Notes under the pieces: generated by a model | Database searches by the model: none | What the model saw: the letters and a program-made list of their open reading frames with translations, nothing else | Told to the model about the DNA's origin: nothing | Translations under genes and position numbers: made by a program | From: Lytechinus pictus | Lineage: Eukaryota | Direction of reading: 5' to 3' | DNA: 60,000 nucleotides | Assembly: GCF_037042905.1 (NCBI RefSeq) | Contig: NC_087245.1 | Span: forward strand, 1,738,001 to 1,798,000 | In this document: positions 4,388 to 50,800 of the stretch, one piece after another | Layout: the number at the start of each line of letters is the position of its first letter | Position numbering within the stretch: the stretch's first letter is position 1

Positions 4388-4903
4388 TAATAAATAGAGT
4401 AAAATTCACGAAGCAAAATGCTAAAAGAATCATCAAAATTGGATGATAACAAATAACGAAGTTATTGAATTTTAAAGATTTGCATTATTCCGGTAAAACA
4501 GCTAGGTCTATATGTCTTCATGAATATTCATTGGTGGGATGATGATGTCATACCCCCAATTATTATATGAAATAAGGTTTATTAAAAACATTTCTACCAA
4601 GAATTAAACAATTAGATTGACAACTGATTAAGTGCATTATATATTTCTTGCTGCAACTTATTTCATCATAATGGAGACACATCATTTACACATTCATGAA
4701 AAATAAAATGATTTCATGTAATAACATAAGAAATAGGAAAGTGGGGATGTGACATCATCAGCCCACCTAATATTCATGAAGACATGCCTAGAACTGTTTC
4801 ACCCGAAAAATGCAAATCTTTAAATTTCAATAACTCTGTTATTTGTTATCCTATTTTGATGAAATTTTCAGTATTTTGCACTGTGAATTTTACTCTATTT
4901 ATT
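4388..4903. mobile_element. Palindromic MITE remnant
   Basis: ~160-bp arms (4388-4550, 4750-4903) are reverse complements; related fragment at 21780-21872 ends GACCTTTAA. Confidence 0.65.
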
Positions 4904-9504: not shown

Positions 9505-9930
9505 GTCTCCAATGTGGGAGATTATCTCCAATATCAGAGACTTTTGTAAAGAATTTGGGTATTATCCAATTTCAGAGACAGTCTCTAGAGTCTAGTTTTG
9601 GAGACCAATTTTCTTTGTTTACATTTGCTGCAAAAGGATTACCTTGGCGGCAAATAAAAATGTGATAAGGAGATTCCTCATGAAAAATTACCCCTTTTCA
9701 CCGTCTACTTTAAAAATTCACCGTCTACTTTTGTTTTGATAAGGATTTTTGTTGTCAATCACACACAAAACAAATGGGCTTCTGACCTCAGTGAGACAAA
9801 ATTTTGGGTGGAAAAAATCATGCTTTTGTTGGTGTTGTTTCTTTTGTCCTTTTGCAAAGCAAGTCTCCAATGTGGGAGATTGTCTCCCCTATTGGAGAGA
9901 GTCTCCCATATTGGCCGTGCGCCTCTACTG
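9505..9930. mobile_element. Truncated copy (right half) of the 32557-33366 element
   Basis: Near-identical to 32970-33366, ends GGCCGTGCGCCTCTACTG; interrupts another small TIR element (~9431-10006). Confidence 0.85.
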
Positions 9931-10202
9931 AAAAATGACCATATGATTAATTGTGATTTTTTGCATGGTCAGCCCCACCACTTTGAAAACCCTTCCGCGG
10001 CCCCTGTATGTAGTGTAAGGTGACCACTAACTTCTCCAAACTTGGCCAAGCATCATGAAGCATACGCCGTAGGCGTAGGGCTGCACTGTGTAATATTGGG
10101 CAGAGGCATGAGAGGATACTCTCCAAAAAGGGGTAGAATGGGATCACCATAGCACCTTGAACCTTGAAGAGTAATCCCTTTCAGCAGCTTCAAAGCTATC
10201 CC

Positions 10203-10499
10203 GGGAAAAAATAAATTATGCACTTACCTCGATTATAATATGGATGAAGATCTATCGTGACACAGAATCCTCTGACATCGAGGCACAAACTGGACCCTCA
10301 AAAAAAGGAAAAGTTCTGTCTCGTTCGTTCTCCTTTCAAAATTAAAAACAAAATGGCCGATCGTTACTGAGAACGAGCGCGACATGGAGGTCTAACTTTT
10401 CCTTTTTGAGGGTCCAGTTTGTGCCTTGATGTCGGGGATTCTGTGTCACGATAGACCTTCATCCACATAATCGAGGTAAGTGCATAAGTTATTTTTCCC
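10203..10499. repeat. Long inverted repeat (palindromic MITE), arms ~110 bp
   Basis: TTATGCACTTACCTCGATTAT...GGAAAAGTT versus AACTTTTCC...ATAATCGAGGTAAGTGCATAA. Confidence 0.85.
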
Positions 10500-10515
10500 C
10501 CTTTATTTGGAGTGC

Positions 10516-17600: not shown

Positions 17601-20600
17601 ACATTTCCTCCCGACACTTCCTCTGACCTGACCCAGCCTACTCTGAGTGGTGATGAGATAAATATCTTTGGAATTTTAATCAATGCATAATACAATTTTA
17701 CTCCGACCAGGATCCCCCTGGATTCTTTTTTTAATTCTAAAATGGCGTTGGATCATGCGTGAAAAGGAATCTGTTTATTTTGACCTCCTGCACCTTCTCA
17801 CCTCTATTTCATTGCTATTTTCTTTGAACAGGTTGTTGTCCAACATCAAATGATGCAACGCAAACTTTGGATGCAGGACAAGAATAAGAAAAAGAAATCT
17901 AAGTCACTTCTCAAGACATCTCCAGAGGACCCCAATTTTGGCGCTCCAGGCCTTCACCCTGTCAGCAGGCTTGTACAGATCCTCCAGGTAATACCTTTAT
18001 CCCTTTTTAACAATAAGCCAACAATATATCTGTTTTCTACTATGATATCTCCTCTTTATCAAGTAAGAAGAAAATTATGCCATGACCATACAGTTAAGAC
18101 TTGATATTTCTAGGGCAGTCATTGTTACTTTTCTTTTCATTTTAGCTATTGTCCTAATCATAACTAGAGAGCTCCTGTTCCATAAGAAATTTGCATGACA
18201 CCTAAATGACATCTAAGATTTCATTTTTACAGTACCATACCTTGTACTCACTATGGATGACACATAACCGTCGGTTATTCTTTTAGTTGTTTTCCCCTTT
18301 GTAGTTCAAGAAGAACAGTTACGTCTAACTTTTGAGGCTGGAAATTATGTTTATATACAAAATAATGAATCTCTGTCCCAACCTCTCAAAAAGATGCGAC
18401 CTAACTGTTGATCTGGTATTTATTGTATGTTTTTCTGTAGGCCAAGAATGAGCGTGAACCTGAATTCACTGTGATTGATGATCGTCCTCTAATGGAACGA
18501 GCTGGACCTCACATGATACGGAGACGAGAGTTCACCATACAGGTACATCTTACCTAGTTTATTCTTATAAAGAAATAAAAACAACTATTTAAGCTAATTG
18601 CATAAATGGTAAGAAATGCACTACCTGTGATGTGTTTTTGTCTCACCTGCATAGCAGAGTGAGACTATAGGCGCCGCTTTTCCGACGGCGGCGGCGGCGT
18701 TAACACCAAATCTTAACTGAAGGTTAAGTTTTTGAAATGACAGAATAACTCAGAAAGGATATGGACCTAGTTCATGAAACTTGGCCATCAGGTTAATCAA
18801 GTTTTACTGAACATCCTGCCTGAGTTTCAGGTCACATGACCAAGGTCAAAGGTCATTTAGGGTCAATGAACTTAGACCATGTTGGGGGAATCAACATCAA
18901 AATCTTAACCTGAGGTTAACTTTTTGAAATGTCATCATAACTTAAAAATGTATAGACCTAGTTCATGAAACCTGAACATATGGTTTATCAAGTATTACTG
19001 AACATCCCGCCTGAGTTTCAAGTCACATGACCAAGGTCAAAGGTCATTTAGGGTCAATGAACTTTGGCCAAATTGGGGGTATCTGTTGAATTACCATCAT
19101 AACTTTGAAAGTCTATGGATCTGATTCATGAAACTTGGACATAAGAGTAATCAAGTATCACTGAACATTCTGTGCTAGTTTTAGGTCACATGATCAAGGT
19201 CAAAGGTCATGTAAGGTCAATGAATTTTGGCCAAGTTGGAGGTATTTGTTGAATTGCCATCATAACTTTGAATGTTTATTGGTCTAGTTCATAAAACTTG
19301 GACATAAGAGTAATCAAGTATCACTGAACATCCTCTGTGAATTTCAGGTTACATGACCAAGGTCAATGAACTTTGGCCATGTGGGGGTATCTGTTGAATT
19401 ACCATCATAACTTTGAAAGTTTATGGATCTGATTCATAAAACTTGGACATAAGAGTAATCAAGTATCACTGAACATTCTGTGCGAGTTTTAGGTCACATG
19501 ATGAAGGTCAAAGGTCCTGTAAGGTCAATGAACTTTGGCCAAGTTGGGGGAATTTGTTGAATTGCCATCATAACTTTGAAAGTTTATTGGTCTAGTTCAT
19601 AAAACTTGGACATAAGAGTAATCAAGTATCACTGAACATCCTCTGTGGATTTCAGGTTACATGACCAAGGTCAAAGGTCAATGAACTTTGGCCATGTGGG
19701 GGTATATGTTGAATTACCATCATAACTATGTAAGTATATCGGTATAGTTCATAAAACTTGAACATAAGAGTCATCTTTTATCATTGAACATCTCATGCAA
19801 GTTTCAGGTCACATGACCAAAGTCAAAGGTCATTTATGGTCATACTTTGGCCATTTTAGAGGTAATTATTAGATTGCTGTCATAACCTTCAAAGTTATAG
19901 ATATAGTGTATAAAATGTGGATATAGGGGTAATCAAGTATCACTGACAAGTTTTAGGTCACATGATCAAGGTCAAAAGTCAGTGAATGTAGTATTGTATT
20001 ATTATATAATGGTTTTTTGTTGTTGTGAATAATAATTTTATAGTAGTTTTCAAAGTCAGCACTGCTGCTATATTGAATCGCGTGATGTAGGTGAGACAGC
20101 CAGAGGCGTTCCACTTGTTTTTTTAAATCAGAGCACTATAACTTTCCCATAAAAGAAATAATTAATATTCTTCAAATTGATTCGAAAACAGTACATTAGG
20201 CTATTGTAGAATGAGCACAGGAGCAGGTTTGCATATTTCATTGTCGCATATGTGAAGTCCCTTTTCTGGATTTCGTCCTGCATTGCACTTTTGTGGATTT
20301 AAAGGGGAAGTTCACCCTGACAAAAGCTATTTGTAAAAATAGTAGAAAAAAATAATAAAAGATAGTACTGAAGGGTTGAGAAAATTCCATCCAAGAATTA
20401 AAAAACTTATTAGAATTTCAATTATGTTTGTGACGTCATATGCAAGCAGCATTCTTACATAGCGAATGGTAAAAAATCAATGAAATTTCATTTTCTCAAA
20501 AAAAAAATGAAAATGGTTTTTACTGTACCTTTTTTATATCAAGAGACAAATCATTTCACACCCTATCGTGAAGAGAAAACAAAAAATAAGTCAACAGGAA

Positions 20601-23600
20601 CCATTAACTATTATATTACATAACATACAAGGCAGCTGCTCGTTTATGACGTCGCAAATCAAACATTTAAAATTCTAATAACTTAATCTTTAATGGATTT
20701 TCCTCAAACCTTCACCAATATTTTTTTGAATTTTTTTCTGCTATTTTTACAACAAACTATTCTCCAGGGTGAACTTCCCCTTTAAAGAAAATTTGCATGA
20801 TACCTAATGGCATCTATGATTTTGTTTTACAATATAACACCATATGTTTACTCTGAAAGACATATAATCTCTGGGTATTCCCTTTGGTTATTCTTTTGGT
20901 CGAGCTCTATTGTGTTTTAGGAGATGATGTTTGGTTTATTAATGTTTTGATGGGTATTTACGTTGATCAGGTGGCTGCTGCATCTAAGAAAGCTACTGGT
21001 AAAGGGAAGACCAAGAAGGATGCCAAGAAGCAAGCTGCAGAAAACATGTTGAAACTCCTTGGCTATGCCCCTACACCTGATGAAACCAATGGTATGAGTC
21101 CAGGACAACCATCCAAATCAGCCCTCAAGACTGGAGCCAAGGTAAATATGATGGTAGTTCGCAGGCACAAACCCTCTGTCACTGTTCAGAAAATGTAGTG
21201 CTGTTGGTTTTAGCAAACCAACGAAACCAACTCCAATCGACTTACGATATGTCATTGGAAATAATATAAAAACTTTGGTTGGTCAGGGTCCCTTAACACA
21301 AAGCATAGTGATTAATCGTAAGCTTGATTTTCATGATTGATTGTACATTGCAGTCAATGGAATCAATCGTAGAAAAAGTATTCTACGATCATTGCTAAGC
21401 TTTATGTTCCGGGCCTCAGTCAGTTTCACATATCCCAGGTGTGATGGCCATCAATGAATAATAAAAATAATATATTGTATTTATATAGCACTTAATACAT
21501 GGTGTTTCTAAGCGCTTGATTCATTGAGTCATCAATGATGACTAATACTGTAACGGGGCTCAACAGCTAGTCAAAGTTGCACTTAATGCAATGTTAACAC
21601 TATTGTAAGATTTCCCTTTGAAACTTGTTTTCAGGAGATCAATACAGATGAATGAATAGTAAGTTATGTTCTGATAATAACAACGGTCACCTGTATAGTG
21701 TTTGTGTCAACAACAAATACGCACACTACAATGTCAATGTTGAAAAAAGTTGTTGCACAATCATCTTGTTTATTTTACATCCAATTTTGATGAAATTTTC
21801 AGCACTATGCTAGTTTAATTTTTTTCTATTTATTCAAGTCAGCATTTTCCTGGGGTGGACTTGACCTTTAAAAACATGATGATAAATTATTTTTTTCCCT
21901 ATGTAATTCAATATTTTTTACATTTATCACATTCATGAAACTGATAGTTATTGTGGAAAGATTCAGCACATTGAATGGCCACAAAAGTGACACAATAGGA
22001 AAACACAAGATTTTGGCTTTGATTGGCCACCTTTTCAATATTGTGTGTTCTAATCATATGGTCCTGTATTGTATCTACCAGAAGATTGTTAACACAAAAG
22101 ACCTATTTGGAAGCAAACCTATTTTACCAACAGGTGGTATATTTAGGAATCACATTTCTACTATTGATGAAGAATTACAGAAATTTACCTTAGTACTATC
22201 AATCCTTGACCATTCATATTCTTATCTGATTTTCTGCCAATGATTAAAGTTCTATTATTTTATTTTCTTGTTTAGCCTGTAGATCAGGAGGGGGACAGGA
22301 AAGTTACTTTCAAGGATGAGAAACAGAAGAAAGGTAAGTCTCCATCTTAACCCTAAAAATGTCGAGGGGGGGGCTGAATCAGCCCCCCCCCCTCGACATT
22401 TTTCGCGATAAATCTGTAACGCGAAAAGCTGGCGCCGCGCCGTTCCATGACTTTTTTCTTTAAGTCTTGCGCAACTTTTGAGACCAAATTTGCGACGCCC
22501 GGGTACGTGGTTCCGAAATTACGCAACATTCTGTAAGTGCATGTCGACACGAAATTGCAAAAAAACGTGAATTTGTGTACAAATCCAATGCAAATTGTGT
22601 TTTTAGCCAAAGTTTGTAAATGTATCATTATTTTCAATTTTACTAATCAAACTCAATTAATTTCATCTTGTTTATGGTCAGAATAAAGTAGCGGACGATT
22701 TCCATTGAAAAAACAATAAAAAACAACAAGTCGAAAAACAAAGAAATACATGAGAAATTTTAAAAACAATAAAATACATAAGAAAAGAATTGTGATATTG
22801 AATCTTTTTTAAAGTACATTTGATCAGAATCCTTCAAATAGTCTGTGAATAAAAAATTAGCAGTTTAGAGGCCTTATTTAGTGAATTAGAGCAAATCTTT
22901 GATTTAACGCATAAATTAGCATAATTAATGAATTTTGAGATTTTTCGGAAAATTTGATCCTACAGTCTTGGAGATTATGCCATGGGTTATGCATGTGCCA
23001 ATTTTCGTCGCGATCGCGCGGTCGACGGCCGAGATCATAGGGGGGGGCTGAATCAGCCCCCCCCCCCCCCCCCCCCCCAGTCTTCTTAGGCATCAAAATA
23101 GCCCAGTCTATTTAGGGTTAAGATTTGGGGAAAATCTGCAATTACTACTAAATTGATATCAGTGTAAAAGAGCATTTACTAGGTGAAGCTATGAGATATG
23201 TTGTCTCAAATTAATTTCAGAAACATTTAATAATTGAACCTTTGATATATATATCTGAAATATATATGTCAATCTCTGCAATATTCCTTTTTTCAAAATT
23301 AATGATCTTTCCTCAACTTTGTTATCTTAATTTATTTCATCCCAGGTACTAAGAAGGATGAAAAGAAAGATGGCTCTCAAGTCCAAGGGAATTCTGGGAA
23401 GGGACTTGCCCCAGGGTTACTTCCCATGATGCCAGGCATGGGAACCCAACCACAGATCTTCCCATCAGGCCCTGCTCCAGCAGGAGCTCATAAAATGCCC
23501 GGGCAAGGTAGGAACTGCTTCCATCACAGTGCTCGATTTTACAAAAGCTGCCTTCTGATAAACTTGTGTGTCTGTTTCATTAAGCAGTTAGGCAGTTAGT

Positions 23601-25085
23601 TCTGCCTTTCATAACCTGCATGAAGATGCTTTCACTTTACACACTAGTATTCCTATCAAATACTAAATAGTTGGAAAGCTTATGAAACAGTATAAATTTG
23701 CTACGTAGCATGGTTTTCAAAATGTTCATAACAGAATCTTTGAACCTCAATGCATTACACAGGGAATTAATAGGTCTACACTTTTTAAGAGGGTCTTTTT
23801 TTTATTCAATACATAATAAAGTGGTAAAGACCTCTTACAATAATGATTTTGTATCATTTGGGAATGTCACATTGAGGCATATATAATCCTGATCATGATA
23901 ATTCATGAAAAGCATTATCTTTTCAGAACAAGATACACAATACAATGGAGCCCATGGTAATGAGAAGGAAAATGAAAGTGAAAAGATGTTTGATCCAAAT
24001 TTTCCATCATGTTGAACAATACTTTAGGACCATCAAAAGGCAGAACATCTCATAACTTTTTTTATTATTTCCTTTCATCAGGCCTAAACCGTGCCCCTGG
24101 TGCTCCTGTCACAGGCTCTAATATGAAGGTTTCCCCAAAGAAGAATTCTCTACGTGACATCGCTCAAGACCTCCTCAGCCTTGGACACTCCCCAACCGCT
24201 GAAGCACTTCTAAAGGGAACAGCTGGACCACATTCTATCCCCAATCTCTCTAGACCAACTCAACAGCTAGAGTACCTTGCCAAAGTCAGTGGTTGCAGCA
24301 CCAAGTTTAATGATTTCCCAAAGGTAGGTCCAAGGTGAAGTCATATATGGTATACTCCGAACTACCAAACCAGGTTGCTGCCTGAGCTTCTGATATTATT
24401 ATTCGCCATGTAATTTCTGTCTTAATCAGCATCGAGGAGCATTTCATCAACATTTGTTGTCTGACGAGTTGTCATAACTTAAGAATTTTTGTGAGTTGTG
24501 ATTTTCTCGTAAGCAAACGTGTCTGGACTATTAGAATGATAATCGGCGGATAATGACAACTTGTCAGTGCTGAAAACTTCAACCAAATGAACCCCAGATC
24601 CACAAGCAGAATGCATTCATTAAATGTGCACTTTGCTTGAATTCCTGCATCTAGTTTTTCAATCGCAGGTTACACAATATTTGTATATATCTGTATAAAC
24701 TCTGAAATCACAACTTAGTAGCTAGATTTACTTTTTCAGTACTCTGGTACAAGTCTCCAAATTTGATTAATGATATGTCTATTTTTCTGTTCATTTATAC
24801 TCTACTATTATCTGAGAACTGAATATTTAACAGGCCATTATTTTCACATCATCACTTTGGCAAATTAGTGGTCTTGCTAGATATATAAGTGCTTCCATGT
24901 TACATCAACAGGGAAACAAACCTGAGTTCCAGTCTGTGGTGTACATCTCAACTGATCCTCAGTCTGCATACCGTGGTTCAGGTGCCACTGTAGAAGCAGC
25001 TCATGATGTAGCAGCAATCACTGCATTGAGAGCTCTAGCAGGCATCACTGATGGGGATACAAGCAAGAAAGGTGCTGGACGATAG
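11374..25085 (+). CDS. stau: Double-stranded RNA-binding protein Staufen homolog, spliced CDS join(11374-11646,12999-13253,14805-15192,15529-15712,16118-16400,16968-17132,17832-17987,18441-18542,20971-21141,22276-22333,23346-23507,24082-24323,24912-25085), ~870 aa
   Basis: Exon translations match Staufen: MANTKEKTSMCLLNELARYNK (dsRBD1), TPTVKLNSLAMK...VTVGEREFVGEGKT (split dsRBD2), KSDISLIYEAA...GPSKKDAKRKAA (dsRBD3), PVSRLVQILQAK...RRREF (dsRBD4), RKVTF, SSM IAQDLLSLGHSPTAEALL, QQLEYLAK (dsRBD5). All introns are GT-AG with compatible phases; total 2613 nt. Confidence 0.96.
12085..12925. mobile_element. Non-autonomous hAT-like element in staufen intron
   Basis: TIR TAGGCCCGTTT / AAACAGGCCTA; perfect 8-bp TSD TAATTAAC; subterminal CGTGTACACG repeats. 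Confidence 0.88.
12999..13253 (+). CDS. stau: staufen exon, dsRBD1
   Basis: gtag|GAA...AGA|gtgagt; EANNMANTKEKTSMCLLNELARYNKLQPKYELIKEKGPPHEKIF. Confidence 0.95.
14805..15192 (+). CDS. stau: staufen exon, N-half of dsRBD2 plus P/Q-rich insertion
   Basis: TPTVKLNSLAMKTGKQVHY; acceptor at 14805 or the in-frame alternative 14811; phase-1 donor gtttga. Confidence 0.88.
15529..15712 (+). CDS. stau: staufen exon, P/Q-rich insertion in dsRBD2
   Basis: ttctag| and |gtaagc; phases 1 and 2 bridge the flanking exons. Confidence 0.9.
16118..16400 (+). CDS. stau: staufen exon, C-half of dsRBD2 and start of dsRBD3
   Basis: HYVKVTVGEREFVGEGKTQKGARQNAASRAL...KSDISLIYEAA; atcag| and |gtgaga. Confidence 0.95.
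16968..17132 (+). CDS. stau: staufen exon, dsRBD3
   Basis: VLEERGQPHLKVF...EGPSKKDAKRKAAELML; gacag| and |gtaaga. Confidence 0.95.
17832..17987 (+). CDS. stau: staufen exon, basic linker and start of dsRBD4
   Basis: KNKKKKSKSLLK...HPVSRLVQILQ; aacag| and |gtaata. Confidence 0.93.
18441..18542 (+). CDS. stau: staufen exon, dsRBD4
   Basis: AKNEREPEFTVIDDRPLMERAGPHMIRRREFTIQ; ctgtag| and |gtacat. Confidence 0.93.
18636..20118 (+). mobile_element. Helentron/HINE-like non-autonomous element with internal tandem array (~8 units of 145-190 bp)
   Basis: Subterminal IRs GTCTCACCTGCA / TGTAGGTGAGAC, (GGC)n microsatellite, central GGTCAAAGGTCA repeats, T-rich insertion site, no TSD. Confidence 0.8.
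20303..20781. mobile_element. Kolobok-like palindromic MITE
   Basis: TTAA on both sides; TIR AGGGGAAGTTCACCCTG / CAGGGTGAACTTCCCCT; partial copies ~34720-34836 and ~51296-51630. Confidence 0.88.
20971..21141 (+). CDS. stau: staufen exon, end of dsRBD4
   Basis: ATGKGKTKKDAKKQAAENMLKLLGY; atcag| and |gtaaat. Confidence 0.93.
21283..21419. mobile_element. Short Harbinger-like MITE
   Basis: Imperfect TIR GGTCCCTTAACACAAAGC / GCTTTATGTTCCGGGCC; related inverted copy ~17221-17356. Confidence 0.5.
22276..22333 (+). CDS. stau: staufen small exon with RKVTF motif
   Basis: tttag|CCTGTAGAT...AAAG|gtaagt encodes PVDQEGDRKVTFKDEKQKK. Confidence 0.88.
22351..23117. mobile_element. piggyBac-like MITE
   Basis: TTAA|CCCTAAA...TTTAGGG|TTAA; GGGGGCTGAATCAGCCCCC palindromes near both ends. 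Confidence 0.9.
23346..23507 (+). CDS. stau: staufen exon (linker, GLAPGLLPMMP)
   Basis: cccag| and |gtagga; open phase-1/phase-1 exon. Confidence 0.88.
24082..24323 (+). CDS. stau: staufen exon, Staufen-swapping motif and start of dsRBD5
   Basis: DIAQDLLSLGHSPTAEALLKG...PTQQLEYLAKVSG...DFPK; atcag| and |gtaggt. Confidence 0.93.
24912..25085 (+). CDS. stau: staufen last coding exon, dsRBD5
   Basis: GNKPEFQSVVYISTDPQSAYRGSGATVEAAHDVAAITALRAL; TAG at 25083-25085; donor CAG|gtaggt 9 nt later. Confidence 0.92.
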   Translation, partial: GNKPEFQSVVYISTDPQSAYRGSGATVEAAHDVAAITALRALAGITDGDTSKKGAGR

Positions 25086-25385
25086 ACATCACAGGTAGGT
25101 TCCTTTGTCTATAGTGTGAGGAGGAGCTGCCATGTAGAGATTCTAATAAACTTCATTGCATTGGTCAGTGTGATCAGATGTGTGATCAGATGTGAATAAA
25201 CAAATACAATCAAACTTTGCATGATGGAGTTCCTAGTGGTATTATTTTATGAATAAAGTCAATTTTAATATTGATGTGGTATATGATTGGTGGGTATGTA
25301 CTATTGGATAGTTTACAAATAATACATGTGTTCTGTATATCATTTATGCATTTGTACTTTACTATAAATCAAAATTCTTTCTTAA

Positions 25386-26165
25386 CCCTATCTAGGCCGG
25401 GGGGGGGGGCCCCCTCAACGAATCGCGCGATATTTTCGCCGCGCGAATTTTTTTGACTGCGCCGCTCGCTGACTTTTTACTTTCAAGTCTTGCGCAACTT
25501 TTAAGACCAATTCTCCGTCACCCGGGTACGTGGTTCCGAAATCACGCAACGTTATGTAAGTGCATGTCAGACCAAAAATTGCTCAAAAACGTGGTTTTGT
25601 GTACAAAGTCAATGCAAATTGTGTTTTCAACCAAAATTCATAAATGTATGATTATTTTTTAGTTTTGCTGGTCTAAATGTAGTTATTTTATGCTTTTTAT
25701 TATCTCATAAGAGTCCCCAACAAATTTCATTGAAAAAACAATGAAAAACAAAAGGTCAAAAAAACAAAGAAATGCATAAGAAATTGCAAAAAACAATAGA
25801 TTACATAAGAAAATGATTTGATATCGCAATTTTTTTCATGTACACTTGCTAAGAACACCACAAAGTGTTTTTATACCAAAAAGTTGAACATTTGGAGCTT
25901 TATTTAGGGAGTTAGAGGAAAAAGTATGATTTCGCGTACTAATTACGCATAAATTAGCATAATCACTTAATAGTGATTCGCATGAAATAAATTACTATAC
26001 AATTTTGTAGATTATGTCCTAGGCAACCCGCGTGCCAATTTTCGGCGCGATCGCGCGGTCGACAGCCGAGATCTCAAGGGGGGGCATGGGAGGCCCCCCC
26101 GGCCATATGAACTCCAAAAATACCCCGGCCATATGAACTCCAAAAATACCCCGGCCTAGATAGGG
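25386..26165. mobile_element. piggyBac-like MITE, related to 22351-23117
   Basis: TTAA|CCCTATCTAGGCCGGG...CCCGGCCTAGATAGGG|TTAA; internal sequence homologous to the first copy; ~27-bp tandem duplication near the right end. Confidence 0.9.
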
Positions 26166-26741
26166 TTAAAAGAGGAAGTCTGTTTATCTCGTACATATAA
26201 ATCGTTTGAAATTTTTTAGTTACTCATGAACGAATGTGCCTAATATATAAGTTGCCTATTTAATTTTTAAATGTCATATAGTATGATATTAACTTCTCAT
26301 TCTAATATTGACATACCACTGCATCATCTCTTTGTTGATGTGCACGTGAAGCTTTGTTGGGGATGTTACAGATTATTTATTAATTGGTAACCAAGATATT
26401 TTATTTTTTATGTTGAATTTTGTCATCTTATAGCACTTTGAAAATCATTCCATTGATTTCAGGATATGAAATGGTAAATCAGAAGTGACAAATAAGGTGT
26501 TGTATAAGATCTATCGTTGCAATTCAGGAAATTTCCTGACAATTTATCAAAAAAATTCTGATTATGATGTATAATACCTAGAAAATCATAAGAGAGAAAA
26601 TTTTGATTTTTTTTTTCAGCATTTCTTGATTTAAGAAGGAATACCGAAGGCCTCTATGATTTGTTCCTTACCAAACAAGAATTGATGTATGATATCTGAA
26701 CCATGTTTCTTACCTTTTTGTTTGATTTTTTCATACAACAG

Positions 26742-27640
26742 GCTTCTTTGGCAGAAACGTGTAAGCTGCTGACAAACAGAATGGATGTTAACAAGTTCGT
26801 TCATAGAAAACTTCTTGAAAGAAAAGGAAATTATTATTATAAGATATATTGATATAAATTGATGATTTTATGTCATTATCATTGCACTTTTGTTTTTATT
26901 TTTAATTGAATTCTTATACACTTTTGCATGCAAACACAAGAATTTAGTTTCATGATAGTTTACCCTAGTTTTTATGGTTACACTTCGTAATTCCGAAGGT
27001 TCGTAATTCTGAAGGTTCTTTATTCCGAAACACGTAAATTGCCTATACCTCGATGTTCGTTAATCCGAAACGTAAAAGGGTTCGTTAATCCGAACATTTG
27101 TGGCGTTATTCCAAAGGTTTGTTATTCCGAAGGTTCGATAATCCGAAAACGAAATAAGGTTCGATGATCCGAAGGTTCGTCAATCCGAAAACGAAATAAG
27201 GTTCGTTGTTCCAAAGGTTCGTTAATCCGAAGACGAAATAAGGTTCGTTGTTCCGAAGGTTCGTTAGTCCGAAAACGAAATAAGGTTCGTTAATCATTAG
27301 TTTTCGGACGAACGAACCTTTGGAATTACGAACCTCATTTCGTTTTCGGATTAACGAACCTTCGGAATAACGAACCTCACTTCGTTTTCGGACTAATGAA
27401 CCTTCGGAATTATGAACCTCATTTCGTTTTCGGACTAACGAACCTTCGGAATTACGAACCTTCGGAAATACGAACCTTCGGAATATCCGAACCTTCGAAA
27501 TAACGAAGCTTCGGAATTACGAATGTATGCGGTTTTTATTATGTACTAAAATATTATGAGGCATCCTGGATTTATCTATAAGTTTTAATGTTTCTTTTTA
27601 AGTGATTATTCTTAAATAAAAAAAAAGGTATTTCTGGTGA
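26742..27640 (+). other. stau: Putative terminal 3'UTR exon of staufen (may extend further downstream)
   Basis: Strong acceptor ttttgtttgattttttcatacaacag at 26741 can pair with the donor at 25095; AT-rich; first canonical AATAAA at 27615. Confidence 0.55.
26976..27531. mobile_element. Foldback-type element with modular tandem-repeat TIRs (possibly Mutator-like)
   Basis: Left arm TTCCGAAGGTTCGT repeats (42-nt higher-order unit), right arm ACGAACCTTCGGAA repeats; flanked by direct repeat GTTTTTAT (26968-26975, 27532-27539). Confidence 0.85.
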
Positions 27641-29589
27641 AAGGAAGATCTTATTCTTTTGATTTTATTACATAGAATGAATGTATGTATATTCTTAATG
27701 TTTGCATGCAAAATTTGTCACAAGATGACTAAGAATAACATTGAAAAGAATTTATTAGGTGTGGTATTGTGAATATTGTTAATCAAAACAAAGTTGCTTA
27801 AAAGTTCATGTTTTATGCTTATGGATAGAAATGGCTTGCTTGTAGTTTTAAAGATAGTTAACAGATTGGAATTTCCTAAAACGATCAGAATTTGTCTTGT
27901 TTTCATTGTTTATATTTTGGAATATTTGGAAGGCCCAAACTTCATCATTTGTATTGTATTTTTGCTGATAAGTATCAACACTGAGGATGATGATTCTGAA
28001 TAGATTCACCATTAAGCTGTAAAACATGTATTTCTAAATGAATGTATATATATTCACACTACCATGCTGTGTATTACTTACAAGAATTAAAAGTGTAATG
28101 ATTATTAGATTAATGAAACTAAAAATTGAAAAAAAAAGCTGTGGTAGGTTCATTAAATGGAGAGGGCCCTCCCATTGCTTTTTATTTGAATGAAAACCTT
28201 TGTTTCACCATGCATTAATTATTCAAAAAGAAGTCGACTTATGTCTGAAGAAAATAAATAATCTGCACACGAAAGTTGTAAAAGTGGAAGTAGGAAAAAA
28301 CAAACGTGTTTTTGGAAAATAAGATAATTAGACAGAGTAGATGAAATAAAGATATCCATCACTTAGTGTTTTGATCTCTCTTCCACACAGATTCTTTTGG
28401 CAAATTGCCATAATTTTTTTTACCATTGTGTTTCATTGCCATTTATAATGTATTTTTTGTAGAAAAGACATAACAAAATGCATAATTAAAGCACCTACTG
28501 TATGTATCAGGGGAAAGTTTGCTGTTACATTGTACAGTTGTAGGATTATGGAACACATTTTTCAATTGCAAGATAGCTAATTTAAATGTAGAAAAGCTTT
28601 GACTCTTGAAAACATTTTGTTCTTTCTGCTTTCACTACAATGCAATTTGTATGTAGATTATTTACACCTAAAAAAAGAGGTCCTGTAGACATATACAGTG
28701 TGACAATATGTTTCTTAAGTTTTCACTTGCTGTTCAAAAGAGGTTTGGAGGAAAGAAGAAATAATACTATGAGCAGTGTTTGAAGCAAAGGTTTTTACTG
28801 CAAATGAAATCTTCAATTTATTTTACATCTATGTATTTGCTTATATAATGTGATGATGATGATAAAGGCATGTATAGGCACAAATTTTGCACCCGTGTTC
28901 ATAATCTGGTGTACAATTTATGTTTATCCTGCCTAAATGTATTTTTAAAGGTATTTTTTATTCACTTGCTTCACGGCTAGATTTCCTGATTTGTATGTAT
29001 TTATTTTAGATAAAAATATTGGACTGACCCTATTAATGAATAAGTCTTACTAGACTACTCCAAGGCATGTACCTATTTTGTTTTTTAAATGATGTACCAA
29101 AAGTTCTTTTCAACCCATCATATCAAGCATTCACACTATGGGTGAAAATATTATTTTGTGTCATGGTCATTTAATTCACGGTTGTACCTGTTAGATCGGA
29201 CTTTGATATAATATGATTCTGGATGGAATATTCAAGTAGGAAATCTACAACTTGTATATTCATCAGTAAGAAATTATCAAAATTTGCCAAACAATCCACA
29301 AATCACAGAAAACTATGTCTTATTATCTGTTATAGTATTATTATAGCACATGGGATTATCAGTGTAAGTTTTCATCACAAGGTTTATGATGAAAAAGGCA
29401 TTTTGTTGCTAATATTAAAGATGATTCAGAAGAAACCACAAAGACTTGTGCTAGAAGCATTATGTTAGTATTCTAACAATTCATCATTAAATACTCTTGG
29501 TTATGCAACATAGTGCTTGTACCTCTCAATATGTGTATTTATTTGTTTGGCATATTTCTTTTTAATGGCAAAAAGAAGCTGCTGAAAAA

Positions 29590-30410
29590 CTGCTTATCTA
29601 ATAAAAGAGAGCCAATGGAGTAAATTAGAAAGTCAAAAAGGGGCCTAAGCTTTCGATCCTAGCAGAATCTTCGTCGGAGGCAAAATGACAAACATATAAA
29701 GTGGAACAACCATAATATAGACCACAAACAAGCTACAGCAACACTAGAAACAAGGAGACAAAAGGGGCATTAGTGAGTAGAGAAGACCAATCAGGTTAGT
29801 GAAGGGGATGAAAGAAAAGGAGTAGGCAGACACAAAGGGAAGTTAGTGTGAGTAAGGCCAGTAAAAGACCTCAAGCCAAGAGGGATTAAAATAATGAGGC
29901 AGGCAACATCAAACAGGATCTGGAACAAAACAGTGATAATGGGATGAAAAACAAGAGAATTAGTGAGAGGTGGGTCAAACAGGTCACAAAGAAAGGCTTA
30001 ATAAACTGGTGCATAAGAGTGGGGAAAAAAAGAAAAAGAATGGGGAACAACTGATGTGCAAAAGACATATAAGTATATATGATAAAGCATTAAACAAACT
30101 AAGAGAAGAAGGTAAGTGTAAATATGTATCTATAAGTGATATGTATATAAATATATCCAAAAAAGAAATGTATATGAAAAAATATATAAATACACATATG
30201 GTGTAACTGATATTGTAATCCGCTAGGATTTTTTTTAAGAAGTTAAAGTTGTAGAAAATTTCATAAAATGGACTGTTCAAAACGGGAAAGAGATGGATAG
30301 TTAGAGATGACAGAGAGTGTGTGGGTGAAGATGGAGTGAGAGAGAAAGGGGGGGGGGGGTAAGGGTGGTGGCAAAATGAAGGTTCATTTATTTTAGTTTT
30401 TAACAATTAT
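29590..30410 (-). mobile_element. Penelope-like retroelement terminal remnant with minimal hammerhead motif
   Basis: Hammerhead-like fold at 29643-29681 on the minus strand next to a pyrimidine-rich (minus strand) low-complexity tract; boundaries approximate. Confidence 0.5.
29643..29681 (-). ncRNA. Minimal type I hammerhead ribozyme-like motif with variant core
   Basis: GCCU-CCGACGA-A-GAUUCU-GCU-AGGAUC-GAA-AGCU-U-AGGC: stem I, stem II, GAAA and palindromic stem III; CUGA changed to CCGA. Confidence 0.6.
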
Positions 30411-32556: not shown

Positions 32557-33366
32557 CAGTAGAGGCGCACGGCCAATATTGGAGATTATAAAATAGCTGT
32601 ATTATTTCAAGCATCGCGATTGGTCAATACACGTCACATGACATCCAACTTTTTTTGTGCACTGCAAAGGTGTGCAACAAAAATTGACATTGCACGCTCG
32701 AGCAAACCAGTGCGGTAGAAGTCCAACAAAACTGTACTGTAGGCCTAACTTTTTAAAAAATTGTTTCTGTGTTGCTATTTTATAAAACAAATAATGCACT
32801 TGCTCTGTCGTGCATAAAAGTAAATGCAGAGAAAGCTCGGTTTCTTCAGATGGAGCACACTGGGCACTCGCCGCAAGCGGCTCGTGCTCAGTGCGACTCC
32901 TATCTAAAGAAACCTCGCGTGCTCTGCATTTCCACTAACGCACTAGGCTGCATGCATTATTTGTATACTGTCTCCAATGTGGGAGATTATCTCCAATATC
33001 AGAGACTTTTGTAAAGAATTTGGGTATCCAATTTCAGAGACAGTCTCCAGTTTTGGAGACCAATTTCCTTTGTTTACATTTGCTGCAAAAGGATTACCTT
33101 GGCGGCAAATAAAAATGTGATAAGCAGATTCCTCATGAAAAATTACCCCTTTTCACCGTCTACTTTAAAAATTCACCAGGATTTTTGTTGTCAATCACAC
33201 ACAAAACAAATGGGCTTCTGACCTCAGTGAGACAAAATTTTGGGTGGGAAAAATCATGCTTTTGTTGGTGTTGTTTCTTTTGTCCTTTTGCAAAGCAAGT
33301 CTCCAATGTGGGAGATTGTCTCCCCTATTGGAGAGAGTCTCCCATATTGGCCGTGCGCCTCTACTG
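32557..33366. mobile_element. Non-autonomous TIR transposon with 5-bp TSD (unclassified)
   Basis: TIR CAGTAGAGGCGCACGGCCAATAT / ATATTGGCCGTGCGCCTCTACTG; TSD ACAAT. Confidence 0.9.
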
Positions 33367-33459
33367 ACAATCATTGAATCAAATAAAAATGTTTCCGTAC
33401 TAGTAATAGTATGATCAGGGGCACTCACACTAGTACGAGGTTAGTATATATATATACTA

Positions 33460-33905: not shown

Positions 33906-34868
33906 TGTTTTGAGGAGTTAATGAGTTCAAATATATTTGATATACCTTTCGTTACGGACTCCCGTTCTCCGAGAAGAAATATAAATCACGCATTATTCTT
34001 TAATTTCTTACAACCGCGGAAAAGAAAATAAAACAAAATAGAAGTCACAAACATCTCAGATTAATGAACGATCGATTTGGGAATGTTTTAAAATTGTTTT
34101 GAGGTCCTTACGAGTCAAAATAAATTTTGAATACCTTTCGCTATGAACTCTCTAAGAAATAAAATGACACGTCTATTCTGACAACAGCGGAAATGAAAAT
34201 AAAATAGAACAGAATTCACAAACATATCACTAAACAGATCACTTGGATTGTGAAGCCTCTCGGCTTGATAGGGAGGTATAAACCGGGGTATAAATGATAG
34301 TCTTTAATAAAATTGTTGAAGATTCATAACATATTTGTAAAGAGTTTTGATGCAATATCGACATGATTTATGATATAAAGTCATTCTTCGAAAAGCAAAA
34401 TGAAGCTCACAGCCAGAGCAAGTGATACCTCCTTCGTCATAAGGTACAAGGTACATTGCGTAATACCTTGGGTGACCCAGCTGGGCCAAGTCTGTCATCA
34501 AGACACTCAACAACAAATTGAGATAATCTGTCGAGATTTGCTGAACCATTAAATCAGGTAAACATGAGATAAAAATCGTTTCTCTTGGGACTCATTTGGG
34601 CAGCCACTGAGGTGATTTTAAAACATGAGCCACGCGAGCAATTGCTTTGGGTGTTGATGGACATTTCATTGATTTCTTTTTTAATCAGCGACTTTACAAA
34701 TAAAAAAAATAATAATACACATTCTAATAACTTTTTAAATCTTTGATGGATTTTCTCAAACTTTCACAAATACTTATCATTATTTTTTCTCCTATCTTTA
34801 CAATAAACTTTTTGTCAGGGTGAACTCCCCCTTTAATGTTTGGTCACTTGAAAATGACACCTACATAT

Positions 34869-38864: not shown

Positions 38865-41800
38865 GTAAGACTTTGATGAACCGTGATAATATAGGGGGAT
38901 TAGAGGGAGACTGGAATCAATGAATTGAGATAAACCTTCAAAGATCATACATGTATATGATTTATGTCTGTTCATAAATACTCATGTTGCTACTCTCATT
39001 TTGTAATTTGTAAGTAAGCAGCAACGAATCAGTCATTGACCCATTAAAAATCATGCTGAAGCCTTTCTCGAAAATGTTTTCTAATGTAGCCCTGTTCCAT
39101 GTTTAAAGTTTTTTCAACAACTTATTTAATGAATGTATTTTGGGATGGTACTATATTTTTAGAAAGATTTATTTTCTATGTCTTAATTTCTTCATTCACA
39201 AATTATACAAGAATTTATACTGACTTGTTTTGTAGGTAAAAAAATGTTGATTGTAATATATATCTTAGTCCCTGTTTATTTTTATCATTTTGTCACCTTT
39301 GTAATTTTTAAAGGGGAATTCATCCCGAATAAAAAGTTTTTTTAAGAGGAAAAAGAAAATCAGACAAATTGATAGGTGAAACAAACAAACAATAAGAAAG
39401 TTATGAATTTGTAAAATATTGGTAATCACTATACCCAAGGACACATCAAATTGGCCACATATGTGATGTTATACTGAGGTAAGGCAAGGACATATAGATG
39501 TATACTAATTACGCTAGAGTGCGGAGTCGCCATAGGCGCGCGTACTTAACGTCTGTGATTGCGCGGAGCGTGGTCGGCCATTGCTCGATAGGTCGAGATT
39601 TGCAAAAGTACCCGGATGTACACATAGCTCGTACTTGTAACGCTGTGAAAAAGGGTGCTGTCTCCGGCTTTTATCTTAAAGAAAAGAATCCAACCTCATA
39701 TACAATTGAAAATATGAAAGACAAAATGCATCTCAATAAACTATTAGTGTGATTACATATGGATCAGCTATTGATTTGTCTTTTTACCTGAATTCTCGGG
39801 ATGAAATTCTCAAATAATTTGCATCTACGATTACCTGTCCGTTTATAGGCCTATTATAATAATAGACAACATATTGATAACACATAAATAAATAAATAAA
39901 TAGAAAAATAAATAAAAATAAAACATTAATAGTAAATTCAACATTTAATTCAAAAGACAGTTCAGCCCATCTTCTATGGATTTCCCTACCTTTGGCTTTA
40001 ACTGTCATCGTCCTTTGGCAATTCCTTCATCCACATGATTCCATGTTCTCATCGACCAATTTATGTCGGATATAATTTTGTAATTTCAATTCAATTCATT
40101 TCACTTCACTTCAATTCATTTTTTAAAATTTCACTTCCATTCAAACATAATACAAATTATATAAATCGGATAGGCCCTCAGTTGCCAGGTATACTGACCT
40201 AATAGAGACATTTTAAGGACATGCAGTGCCATTAAACGGATATGTATCTCACTAATTAAATAATGCGAGCGCGAAGCGCGAGCTGAAAATTTTTAGACCT
40301 AAAAAGGGACATTATAAGCAATTTGTTTGTAATCATGATAAGTACCGGATCCCTAAAAAATTAAATGCGAGCGCGAAGCATGAGCTGAAATTTTTGTATA
40401 ATTATATTGACACCAAACAGGGACATTTTAAGGACTATTTTTTTGGAATCCATTTAAAGCATAAATATCACACCATAGTCATCTAATGCTAGTGCCATGC
40501 TTTGCTGATTTTATTAGAATTACATCTCAACACATGAAGTCATTGTAATCATGATTAACATACGCATCTCACTAATCAATTATTGCGAGCGCGAAATGCG
40601 AGATGAAAATTTAGGAAATTAAGACCTGAAAAGGAGCATTTTAAGGCTTGTTTGTAGGAATTCATGAACGTATTTCACTAACCAAATGATGCGAGCGCGA
40701 AGCTCGAGCTGAAATTTTTGTATATATTGAACCCAAACATGGACATTTTAAGGACTATTTTTTAGGAATCCATTAAGAGTATACATATTTCACCATAGAC
40801 ATCTACTGCGAGTGTCAAGCGCTGCTTCGCTGATTTTGTTAGAATTACATCTAAACACATGAAGCACTTTTTGTAATCATTGTAATCATGATTATCATAC
40901 GCATCTCACTAATCGAATACTGCGAGCGCTAAACGCGAGCTGAAAATTAGGAAATTCAGACCTGAAGAGGGGCATTCTAAGGCTTGTTTGTAGGAATTCA
41001 CTAAGACCGTAAGTATTTTACTAACCAAATGATGCGAGCGCGAAGTGCGAGCTGAAAATCTTTATTATTCAGATCAGAAAAATTGACATTTTAAGGACTG
41101 ATTTTAGGACTTCATGATGAAGAGCAAACACCTCACCATTCAACTAATGCGAATGTAAGCACGAACAGGAAATGTTTTATACTAAGACCTTTTAGTAGTC
41201 ATGAAAAAGAAGCATAATATTATCACTATTACCTAAAACAATAATAACTCGAATTGCGAGGAAATATATTTGGTGTATATTGACTTAAAAACGGGAGGTT
41301 TTAGTACAACAGGATTATATATCTCGTTAAACTGTCTATGCGAGCATCAATTAAGGAACAATGAAGACACATGCCCTGAGCAAATAATGTTTCATAAAGT
41401 AATGAAAAAGAAACCGTCTTATGTAATACAACAGAACATAATATAATATAACATTATAATGAATAATAATTTCTTCGTTCCCACTACGTACGTTTCTCTT
41501 CCTTTCTCCCTCTTTTTCTCCCTTTTCCCTTTTCCCTTTTCCCGTTTTTTTTTTTTTTTTTTTTGCCAGACGATTGGGGGGGCACGTGCCCCCCCCATGC
41601 CCCCCCCCTGTAGTTACGCCACTGAAGTGATATATACGCATCCAAGCAAATGCACAATCAAAATAAAAGTATTCAAGTACAGGGGGTGCGACCGGACCCC
41701 TCCCTGAAGTGAAAATGAACAGTACATAATAAAATTTGATTGTGATTTTATGCATCCCCCCGACCACCACTTTCAAAATCATTCCGCTGCCCCGTAATAA

Positions 41801-47800: not shown

Positions 47801-50800
47801 GCATGCAATGCGTGCATAGCGCATCGACGCGACGGCCGGAGCAAAAAAAATATTGACTCGATTTTCCCCGCCGCGCCTTCAAAATTTGATTCATCGATGT
47901 TCGATCGAATTAAAGCTGTCGAACACCAGTTTTCAAAATAATCGATATGACTCAGGCTTAATAGTTTTAGATACAAACATGTCATTACTCTTTTTTGGCG
48001 GGTTGCACGCATTACCAACCTAATGTTAACCCCAGAATGAAAAAAAATGGCCCTCATTTGTAGTTCTTACCTCTTATCTGTCAGGGGTAAGATTGTTATT
48101 CAAATATCCAAAACTAGAGATTGTTTCTTCAAGAGAAAAATCGTTTTAGGTTTGAACTGTCTTGTATATGAATTTGAAGATCATGATGAAGTGTTAAAAT
48201 GATTAATTGTCATTAAGACTTCTTTCAAGGACACTCAAATAATTTAAATAAGTTTGTTCTTAAAAAGGGAGATCTATTTTGTGGATGAATAAGATGTAAG
48301 TCAAATATGTCAAATTTATATTCTGTTGCAAGTGCCTAGTAAGTTTTTGAGATATGTTTGTCAATGTTCTCTCTAGTGCTAAAATCTCAAAATATAAATT
48401 ATTTGAATTCATCAAATTTTTACTTCATTAATATCCTACCACACAGATTCAGCAGCCCATTAACATTATGATGTCACATGATTGGCCTAGAGGCATATAT
48501 CACCATGGTGACAAAGATGACCTATTCCGCAAGAAGAAGTTTTTGGTTGAAGAAGTAAAGAGTAACACATTAGGTAAGGAATTCATTTTCTCACGTTTTC
48601 CACTTTCACTAAGCTTTTGATATTGATCAGTGTTTCTGTCATTTGGAACCTAGTAAAGGTGTCTTTTTAACCAGTGATTAATTGAAATTCATAATACTTG
48701 CTGTTAGGGAATGCAATTCAGTGGATTCACAATACTGAGACAATCTTCCATGATGTCAATGACTGCTTGTTAAAATGGGACTTGTATCTCAAAGGTTTGC
48801 AATCTTGACAGGTCTTGCTATAATTAAAACTCTACTACTACTTGCTGAGTCTCGATGCTGGTTTGAAATGCCCCCTCAAAGAAATCTAATAAAGTTATAT
48901 TTTGAATGGTTGCGTTTAGAAGTGCATTCTATGCCCTTATCATCAAATGAGATTGGTGGAGTACAGGGTGGAATTGCCAGTCACCTATAGGGGTAAACTG
49001 TGTCTTGTGTTTCTGAAAATTATGGGTACAGTGGATATTGCTATTTTTTGTATTTGATCACGTTCAGAAGATTTAAATTATCATTCTTAAGGGTATTTGA
49101 ATAATAAGACTGCAGCAAGAAAATTAGTTTTTGTTACTACATGTATTTCATTTTGAAGGGATTGTTTTTTCTCATATACCTTGTGGCAAGACTGCCCATT
49201 TTATCCCCGATTCAGCCTGACATGTGGTAAAACAAATAATGTACACATAGCTTTTAGGTGAAATATAATCAAAAGACCCCCAACCATATTTGTCATGCAT
49301 TAATGTTTTTGTTTTGATATAAGTGCTTCAAAAGCTTCAACACTTATAATGTACATTTTAATTGTTCTCCAGAGTATATCCAACTATACCATTTATTATT
49401 TCTGAAATAGAAATATTTGGAGAATCAAGACATTTTAATCTCCAAAGTTTTTTGTTTTTTCTTGATACAGGTAGTCCACCAGCTGAAGAGTTGCTCCATA
49501 ATCTCAAACCAGACTATTGGTTCTCAGCTCATCTTCATGTAAAGTTCTCTGCTTTGGTGGAACACAAGGTAGTTTATTAGCCCCTTTTTCTTTTCTCATA
49601 CAGTATAGTACAGATACATTGTGTGGAAGTCAGGGAGTTTTCATCATTGAGAATTGCACTGTTGAAAAAAATCTGATAAAAAAGTTTTCATTGTAATTCA
49701 AAAGTCTGATAAAGTCTATATAAGAAGTTGCAGTGTAGCATTTGCAGACCTATTAATTTGTTAGTTATTTTACAAAGATACATACTAAATGAATGAGAAT
49801 TTATGCATTCAACTGTAATTGGCACAGAAGAATGCGGATCCATCTTTCAAATGAACCCCATTCTCAGTTAATTTTTTTTTTTCAAGATGGCAATGAATCT
49901 GAAGCAAGTTCAGAGATAGCAAGAGTTCACCTTACCAGTGTATTTATTGTGGTGTTTACCGTAGCATGTGTTGCACACAGATACAATGTTTGCAGTGGAA
50001 ACAACCATGCCAATGTTTTGATATTCAACCTCTCCAATTTCGGTAAAATTTGGATAGTATTTATCAAATCAGGTATAGACAGTCATGTAAATTGTACTGT
50101 CCTTTGTATTTCAGGGTGATGATGGCTCTGTCAAGAAGACTACTAAGTTTCTTTCTACAGATAAATGCCTACCGGGCAGGGATTTCCTTCAGGTAATGTA
50201 CAGTTATATCCATTTTAGTATATTGCATTTGACCCTTCTGATAATAAATTATTTGTGGCCAAATCTCATCTTTTACCATTTATCATATTGCTGTAAATGT
50301 TTGCTTTCTCTCCCCCTAACACCCAACCCTGTATCCTGATATTTTCAATGAACTAAGCGTTGGTTAATTTCATCTCACCATTATTTATAATCCATGTTGC
50401 TCTTTAGACAGTACCCTTTTTTGAAAAAGATAATTCATTTCACAGAGCAGATTGCAATTGGTATATCTAGTGTTAACAATGATTACCATTGCTACAATGA
50501 GATGGGTACTGCAGCAGTGTAAATTCTTTGTATGAGAATGTGGATGTCAATTCTAAGAATTTCCTATGTGATTGGTTATGCCTTCATTCATTTTAGATTT
50601 TCTTTACATTGTCCAGTTATCTGATATTGCTGCAAATTGCCATTTTGATGACACCTGTCTCACAGAAATTCAAAAAATGGAAGTGTTAATAGATTTCTTT
50701 AAATTCTTAGAGAAATCTGAGAGGCCTGAATCAGCCAATAGTTCTGTTCTATTTCTTGGTTGGTATATATGTTCAGGTGTACATTTTTATTTTTTTTTAA

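Follow-up and report, generated by a model that had tools for sequence, protein, structure and literature searches.

The 60,000-nucleotide stretch of Lytechinus pictus DNA analysed here (the window) contains a staufen gene, and a foldback element of 556 nt lies in its terminal exon. Among seven staufen exons, Pfam finds the dsRNA-binding motif in four and Staufen_C in two, with no match in the remaining one. The translation of 24084-24323 is 100% identical to P0001, a Staufen homolog 2-like protein of Lytechinus pictus, whose C-terminus is the translation of the last coding exon (24912-25094) and ends at the normal stop. P0001 matches human STAU1 dsRBD3-4 (E 1e-32) and the PDB chain 4DKK (E 8e-19), which we take to be the SSM-dsRBD5 structure; with Staufen_C in two exons, this bears out an earlier prediction from the letters of this DNA (the original prediction), which held that the SSM/dsRBD5 module is kept.

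The splicing of the 3' region was followed over 24000-27110 in two raw-read runs (X19 and X20, stranded and rRNA-depleted, from organism A, each sampled at about 6%) and in one contig set each of organism A and of a close relative, organism B. The stop (25083-25085), the donor GT at 25095 and the acceptor AG at 26740-26741 lie where they had been placed, and the 25094/26742 junction expected from them is carried by 7 reads of X19, 6 reads of X20 and contigs of X1 and X5; the corresponding counts for the upstream intron are 11 and 13. All reads splicing the 3'UTR intron do so in the orientation of the coding exons, contigs of both organisms have it spliced, and its unique bins have zero depth at 25144-25351 (in all four runs) and at 26184-26703. 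Three AATAAA hexamers (25145, 25195 and 25252) sit just inside this intron, downstream of the stop; polyadenylation at these was rejected, the depth there being 0 in four of four runs. The hexamer at 27615, previously named as the first canonical signal, is indeed the first within the terminal exon, where others follow at 28253, 28345 and 29600, but the three intronic copies precede it. A micro-exon using a donor at 26761 does not appear among the joints listed, and contigs are unbroken over 26738-27002 in organism A and 26738-26975 in organism B; an alternative donor near 25071, which would give another C-terminus, is absent among the joints listed, P0001 ending at the normal stop. Nonsense-mediated decay follows a rule of a junction 50-55 nt past the stop, and the junction here, only 9 nt past it, is too close.

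The window holds further repeats. Two related MITEs (25386-26165 and 22351-23117), matching each other at 75% of 633 columns, have CCCT...AGGG termini and a TTAA at either flank, and we take them to be piggyBac-like. Reads from other copies give both strands a high depth there, and the first of the two sits in the 3'UTR intron. Staufen introns also contain a tandem array with periods of 145, 163 and 308 nt (18708-19946) and an element whose inverted arms each measure about 150 nt (20298-20786), relatives of which lie near 34712-34836 and 51294-51437. Dispersed pairs are formed by a 430-nt repeat (9505-9934 and 32970-33370; 92%, same orientation) and by one of about 1 kb (1112-2039 and 40560-41514; 76%, inverted). 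Exons of the lariat debranching enzyme (DBR1) lie at 49362-52713 on the plus strand, the last one matching Pfam DBR1 with E 4.5e-7.

Table 1. Features of the 3' region of staufen and of the foldback element, in positions of the window.
Feature	Position	Strand	Evidence or remark
Coding exon, SSM and first half of dsRBD5	24082-24323	+	Pfam Staufen_C, E 2.4e-12; spliced in 4/4 runs
Last coding exon, with stop TAG 25083-25085 and 9 nt of 3'UTR	24912-25094	+	Pfam Staufen_C; joints on both sides
3'UTR intron, GT-AG, 1647 nt	25095-26741	+	Reads and contigs; contains three unused AATAAA and a TTAA-flanked MITE
Terminal exon, 3'UTR	26742-29620	+	29620 is the end of the stretch queried, not a mapped 3' end
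Left target-site duplication GTTTTTAT	26968-26975		Organism B contig departs right after 26975
Foldback element	26976-27531		Flanked by the two duplications
Left 8-nt terminus GGTTACAC	26976-26983	+	Read ends from other loci stop exactly at 26976
Left arm	26984-27295	+	Three 16-nt units, spacer ~27030-27115, then alternating 16+26-nt units
Main RNA duplex, 159 bp	27109-27467	+	MFE structure, predicted
Right arm	27296-27523	-	Inverted 16+26-nt units, then 16-nt units
Right 8-nt terminus, CGCATACA on the minus strand	27524-27531	-	Same 8-mer closes the loose-end consensus
Right target-site duplication GTTTTTAT	27532-27539		Direct-repeat search of flanks

Anatomy, empty site and relatives of the foldback element

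On each side of the element stands the same 8-bp sequence, GTTTTTAT, in direct orientation and without mismatch; the flank search gave no longer exact repeat. Its arms are inverted arrays of 16-nt and 26-nt units with a higher-order period of 42 nt, the spacer being present in the left arm only; the best ungapped pairing of arm to arm extends over 176 nt at 85%. The two halves thus have the build of inverted tandem arrays first ascribed to them, at a measured length of 556 nt and not 555 bp. The termini GGTTACAC and CGCATACA are not reverse-complementary, as they would be in a classical TIR element or MITE, and because the outermost 8 nt of the two ends differ, the inverted repeats are subterminal. 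Fixed variants specific to one or the other arm led us to reject the 85% arm divergence as an estimate of age. No transposase ORF is recognisable in the 556 nt, the only frame (136 aa, stop to stop) being built of the repeat itself. Long inverted tandem-repeat arms, a target duplication and the lack of such an ORF are the features of a foldback element. A second copy was not found within the 60-kb window, and a search of viral contigs gave 0 matches. Rfam returned three matches, none reaching its gathering score; an identity as MIR2606 (69 bits against a gathering score of 139.7) was rejected, the match reflecting just the long hairpin.

The site of insertion appears empty in organism B. A contig of 3472 nt matches 26738-26975, so that the match runs out exactly where the left duplication does, and its next 434 letters do not fit the element, which is absent from the orthologous position in this contig. 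The contig has 9 differences in 242 nt and 4 in 181 nt, its exons being 96-98% alike, and 7 differences with 3 gaps in the 238 nt of flanking UTR. This pattern, seen in one contig of one run from one close relative, looks like that of an empty site within an older 3'UTR. The contig of X1 carries the insertion with 0 differences, so the insertion is not private to the assembled individual, and it may be fixed. As one copy of an abundant family that a close relative lacks at this position, the element appears to be a passenger of recent arrival and not a self-regulation switch shaped by evolution.

Other copies of the family are evident in the reads. Loose ends fall exactly at 26976 in 162 and 149 reads of the two runs, with a flank agreement of 0.47 and 0.44 that indicates mixed flanks, and 149 and 154 reads end in the other terminus (the CGCATACA 8-mer). 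At 27016-27110 reads from both strands pile up to depths of 448 and 431, compared with 7-9 in unique UTR, which places the staufen copy at about 2% of family reads; RNA from the other copies, again on both strands, is about 50-65 times that from the staufen copy, these levels being taken from total-RNA libraries with introns included. The family is present in organism B too. Dispersed copies with shared termini and unrelated flanks, the 8-bp target duplication and the one empty orthologous site together support the earlier supposition that the duplex was donated by a transposable element.

When metagenome contigs were scanned for the motif, 43 loci came up, of which 18 had one arm only, 4 were truncated where their contig stops and the remaining 21 were scored. 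The best 8-mer duplication matched at 8/8 positions in 6 of these, 7/8 in 4, 6/8 in 3, 5/8 in 5 and 4/8 in 3, leaving 11 of the 21 with no convincing duplication (6/8 or less). The six perfect cases represent five independent loci, and for each perfect locus 0 of 200 trials with displaced flanks reached a perfect 8-mer. Every locus with a perfect duplication has unlike ends of about 7-11 nt followed by a 16-nt unit, and unlike ends recur in L002, L025, L027 and L028; the duplication of L001 can also be read as 9 bp. Among the 43 loci, L002 and L035, L003 and L036, and L007 and L041 are pairs of the same DNA, and L005 (63% GC) looks like a chance match. Minimal relatives of about 95-160 nt (L025, L027, L009, L034, L042, L028 and L001), have about two 16-nt units per arm, unlike ends and 8-bp duplications, and may represent the least that the family needs to move.

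Locus L041 is 75% identical to the element over 576 columns, shares its one-sided spacer and reaches 85% over 130 nt against 26984-27111. In L041 (1397-1975) and L004 (1315-1746) an end of the GGTTACAG type lies on the arm opposite the spacer; in the window the GGTTACAC end adjoins the spacer, and the interior of the element looks flipped relative to its ends between the window and these two loci. Comparison of the flanks of the 43 loci with the window gave no repeat in common. In the search for an autonomous parent, long ORFs were listed for all 43 loci and 10 of these were compared with Pfam, which found no transposase; frames for homeodomain, trypsin, bZIP and ZP/CUB domains in the flanks point to animal DNA. 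If the host of L041 is no urchin, the likeness could be due to horizontal transfer.

From this evidence we consider it probable that the element is a non-autonomous cut-and-paste foldback DNA transposon inserted in the terminal exon of staufen, with the hairpin a by-product of its structure and not an evolved switch. The anatomy of the element suggests that a transposase supplied in trans would have recognised the repeat arrays, the subterminal arrays being its probable binding sites, and that, after a cut with an 8-nt stagger, the copy would have come to lie 244 nt along the spliced 3'UTR. The insertion would have been lineage-specific and into a terminal exon that staufen already possessed.

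The predicted duplex and its probable place in the mature mRNA

Folded as RNA, the element has an MFE of -308.5 kcal/mol, compared with -146.1 +/- 6.5 for shuffled sequences (z -24.8), and none of 100 shuffles was as stable. The predicted structure contains 227 pairs, 226 of which are kept when 26742-27700 is folded, with a continuous main duplex of 159 bp and a longest unbroken helix of 26 bp. An imperfect duplex of more than 200 bp, as first expected, is consistent with the total number of pairs but not with the length of the continuous duplex. Among 298 segments of 556 nt across the 60-kb window the element forms the strongest hairpin, and stems of at least 50 bp occur in 3 loci, or about 1 per 20 kb. 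At this density about one 3-kb UTR in 7 would contain such a stem, a figure drawn from the small sample of only 3 loci, and the coincidence of a hairpin with staufen is only mildly surprising. Two more long self-complementary elements, at 10203-10500 and 4389-4903, have stems predicted at 70 and 93 bp respectively; the first is about 0.9 kb upstream of the frame with the staufen start codon.

ADAR favours A-C mismatches, and the predicted duplex contains about 10 A-C oppositions, several of which recur once per 42-nt unit; those at A27156, A27198 and A27240, in UAA context, are candidate editing sites in the MFE structure, and further oppositions lie at 27113, 27141, 27183, 27213 and 27395. 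A Type I Staufen site is defined as a 19-nt stem with at least 15 pairs and balanced loops that contains a 12/10 stem, according to the available text of PMC3814352. By an MFE-based approximation of these criteria of Laver, the predicted duplex contains structures of the Type I kind: the element has 9 non-overlapping sites in its 556 nt, 26742-26975 has 0, and the 2.1 kb downstream (27540-29620) has between 4 (folded in pieces) and 6 (folded whole).

In the spliced mRNA 244 nt separate the stop from the element, and the RNA data make it likely that the hairpin is part of the mature staufen 3'UTR. A contig of X1 (3070 nt) matches both exons and 26738-27002 with 0 differences and stops once it has entered the element by 27 nt. 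Of 217 words sampled from 27540-29620, a share of 0.88 occurs in this run. X1 behaves as RNA, having a spliced contig and empty unique intron bins. All eight organism-A rows indexed, from 2 studies and with records that leave their RNA status unstated, hold 0.82-1.00 of these words; the shares of 0.23-0.24 in 10 organism-B rows were not used as evidence. What stands of the proposed location in the staufen 3'UTR is thus a spliced contig that enters the element, with downstream words in the same run; full passage through the element goes beyond the 27 nt entered.

Most mature staufen mRNA might instead end just before or inside the element, the signal downstream being that of a minor, longer isoform or of another transcript, and the full duplex would then rarely form. 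Such an early end is suggested by the halt of the X1 contig at 27002, by the left junction, which no read or contig mapped to 24000-27110 bridges by a 31-letter rule (the best reaches 27 letters), by read depth that declines ahead of the element and by weak signals upstream of it (TATAAA at 26853 and AAGAAA at 26819). Contigs, however, break at repeats for technical reasons, the organism B contig goes on for 434 nt beyond the insertion site, and the X1 run combines the look of spliced RNA with most of the downstream words. Nor is there a neighbouring coding gene to explain the downstream signal, as 0 of 74 ORFs of at least 62 aa in 27540-49300 reach the Pfam cut-off. We regard both an early end and the rarity of the full duplex that it implies as very doubtful.

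Possible consequences for staufen

With the hairpin in the mature 3'UTR, staufen mRNA would read through the element and fold into a duplex of about 160 bp, which would be handled like any repeat-derived dsRNA, mainly by ADAR editing; Staufen and other dsRNA-binding proteins would bind it opportunistically, and the net effect on the level of Staufen would be small or independent of Staufen. The generic dsRNA that the element would form is probably a substrate of ADAR, by analogy with other repeats, and it is possibly bound by Staufen. In Xenopus, no repeats are edited more than palindromic DNA transposons that fold on themselves, and for the purple sea urchin the number of unique hyper-editing sites is given as 83,594 (PMC5625713); by this analogy editing would be the likeliest fate of the duplex. 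Differences in the element reads are mostly C>T and G>A, in reads that come mostly from other copies and under a 90% cut that would drop heavily edited reads.

The original prediction went further and saw in the hairpin a candidate autoregulatory loop. In such a loop Staufen would bind its own mRNA and change how it is exported, localised, translated or degraded strongly enough to act back on Staufen levels. Its ingredients are present, as the hairpin is probably in the mature 3'UTR, the dsRBD3-4 and SSM-dsRBD5 of P0001 are intact and the approximated criteria (PMC3814352, as available) give 9 Type-I-like sites in the element. STAU1 on inverted Alus in 3'UTRs is described as promoting export and translation or triggering decay (PMC11263572, PMC3985646, in the parts accessible), and staufen mRNA itself is reported to be spindle-localised in sea urchin embryos (bioRxiv 10.1101/2022.08.16.504170). 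Binding of the hairpin by Staufen is plausible on these grounds, but it is not in itself feedback. Three observations speak against the loop, namely that the site is empty in one relative, organism B, that the staufen copy makes up about 2% of family RNA, so that a 50-65-fold excess from other loci would compete for Staufen, and that the flanking UTR already has predicted Staufen-like stems.

The mammalian literature adds to these doubts. Repression by inverted SINEs is described as STAU1-independent, persisting in STAU1-null cells (excerpts of PMC5080714), and the evidence for STAU1-linked decay is mixed, one global study having seen little decay of STAU1 targets (reviewed in PMC4156307, as far as accessible). 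Site definitions derived from the fly are stated to be no better than UTR length for human targets (PMC3814352, available text). STAU1 on inverted Alus enhanced export and expression in the accounts available (PMC11263572, PMC3985646), and since its binding tends to enhance export and translation, even the sign of the putative loop could go either way. We take FBgn0003520 to be fly staufen. Its row in the genome-wide table of PMC3814352, as available, lists Type I sites, and with the 4-6 sites of the downstream UTR this indicates that self-binding potential does not need the element. We therefore hold feedback through the hairpin to be improbable, and give equally little credence to the narrower proposal that a recent insertion gave one urchin lineage a 160-bp Staufen-binding duplex in staufen mRNA, and with it a new feedback loop absent in the relative.

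A recent insertion can still have an effect, and the hairpin might alter staufen expression without Staufen, by slowed elongation, editing-linked retention, dsRNA cleavage or shifted polyadenylation. The depth over 26779-26878 falls ahead of the element (7, 6, 4 in X19 and 9, 7, 2, 2 in X20) and four AATAAG hexamers lie within the left arm; inverted SINEs are reported to cut RNA independently of ADAR, STAU1, PKR, DICER and DROSHA (PMC5080714, excerpts). The falling stretch, however, has 17% GC and tiny counts for which library bias suffices, no pile-up appears among the read ends listed, and artificial non-Alu hairpins gave no repression in the experiments excerpted from the same paper (PMC5080714). 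We consider such an effect unlikely, if a little less so than feedback, and keep to the reading of a transposon whose hairpin is a by-product.

As a transposon, the element is nothing unusual for this genome. It is also a very stable self-folding repeat that, by the RNA data, probably lies in the 3'UTR of a main dsRNA-binding regulator of mRNA, and the filled and empty sites in close relatives make a natural experiment on a new long duplex in an mRNA. The family stands out in that its 8-nt ends are unlike, its inverted arrays subterminal and its target duplications 8 bp long, and it occurs in other animal-type DNA as well. Were the feedback true, a transposon would here clearly have given rise to an autoregulatory loop, the birth of which the filled and empty alleles of sister taxa would make directly testable, and the self-folding family would be an urchin counterpart of primate inverted Alu pairs, wiring many 3'UTRs to Staufen and ADAR. 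We found no paper on a transposon-made autoregulatory loop for staufen in a literature search largely confined to journals open without subscription and to the accessible parts of papers. The reported spindle localisation of staufen mRNA in urchin embryos offers a read-out (bioRxiv 10.1101/2022.08.16.504170, in part).

Comparison with known transposons and repeat-derived duplexes

The likeness of the element to the sea urchin TU element is by description alone. With Drosophila FB, Tetris and TU it shares a non-coding structure and long inverted arms of tandem repeats, and its 8-bp target duplication falls within the 8-10 bp given for Tetris (PMC4079207, accessible text). Unlike these three it has only 556 nt, no middle domain, units of 16 and 26 nt and an unmatched outermost 8 nt. 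Duplications of about 8 bp are produced by hAT, P, Merlin and Mutator elements as well. A Helentron or HINE origin, considered for the T-rich flanks, was ruled out, in view of the features of Helentrons, by the repeated perfect 8-bp duplications. Zisupton is said, in work by Bohne of 2012, to have subterminal inverted repeats, a likeness by description alone to the inverted repeats of the element that are set in from unlike ends. Zisupton (KDZ) and the element also have an 8-bp duplication in common (PMC12730594, as available), and Zisupton-like proteins occur in sea star, lancelet and mussels (PMC9297572); the element differs in that Pfam finds no KDZ transposase among the 10 locus ORFs scanned. 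The 8-10 bp range of Mutator-type foldback elements (PMC4079207, accessible text) includes the 8 bp seen here, again with no parent among the 10 ORFs; Dada elements are described with 6 bp (PMC3706591, in part). Going by these sequence features, Zisupton/KDZ, Mutator, hAT, P and Merlin are all candidate superfamilies.

As a source of dsRNA, the element resembles the palindromic Harbinger repeats of Xenopus tropicalis, in which a single copy of a DNA transposon likewise self-folds to long dsRNA; these belong to another superfamily, and editing is shown in Xenopus and for the element is predicted only (PMC5625713, text available). With the inverted Alu pairs of human 3'UTRs it shares a long imperfect intramolecular duplex of repeat origin (PMC11263572, PMC3985646, PMC5080714 and PMC4156307, in the parts accessible). 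In contrast to these pairs, it is one DNA element in place of two SINEs, in an invertebrate, with staufen itself as the host gene, and whereas Alu pairs are bound by STAU1, the binding of the element is predicted.
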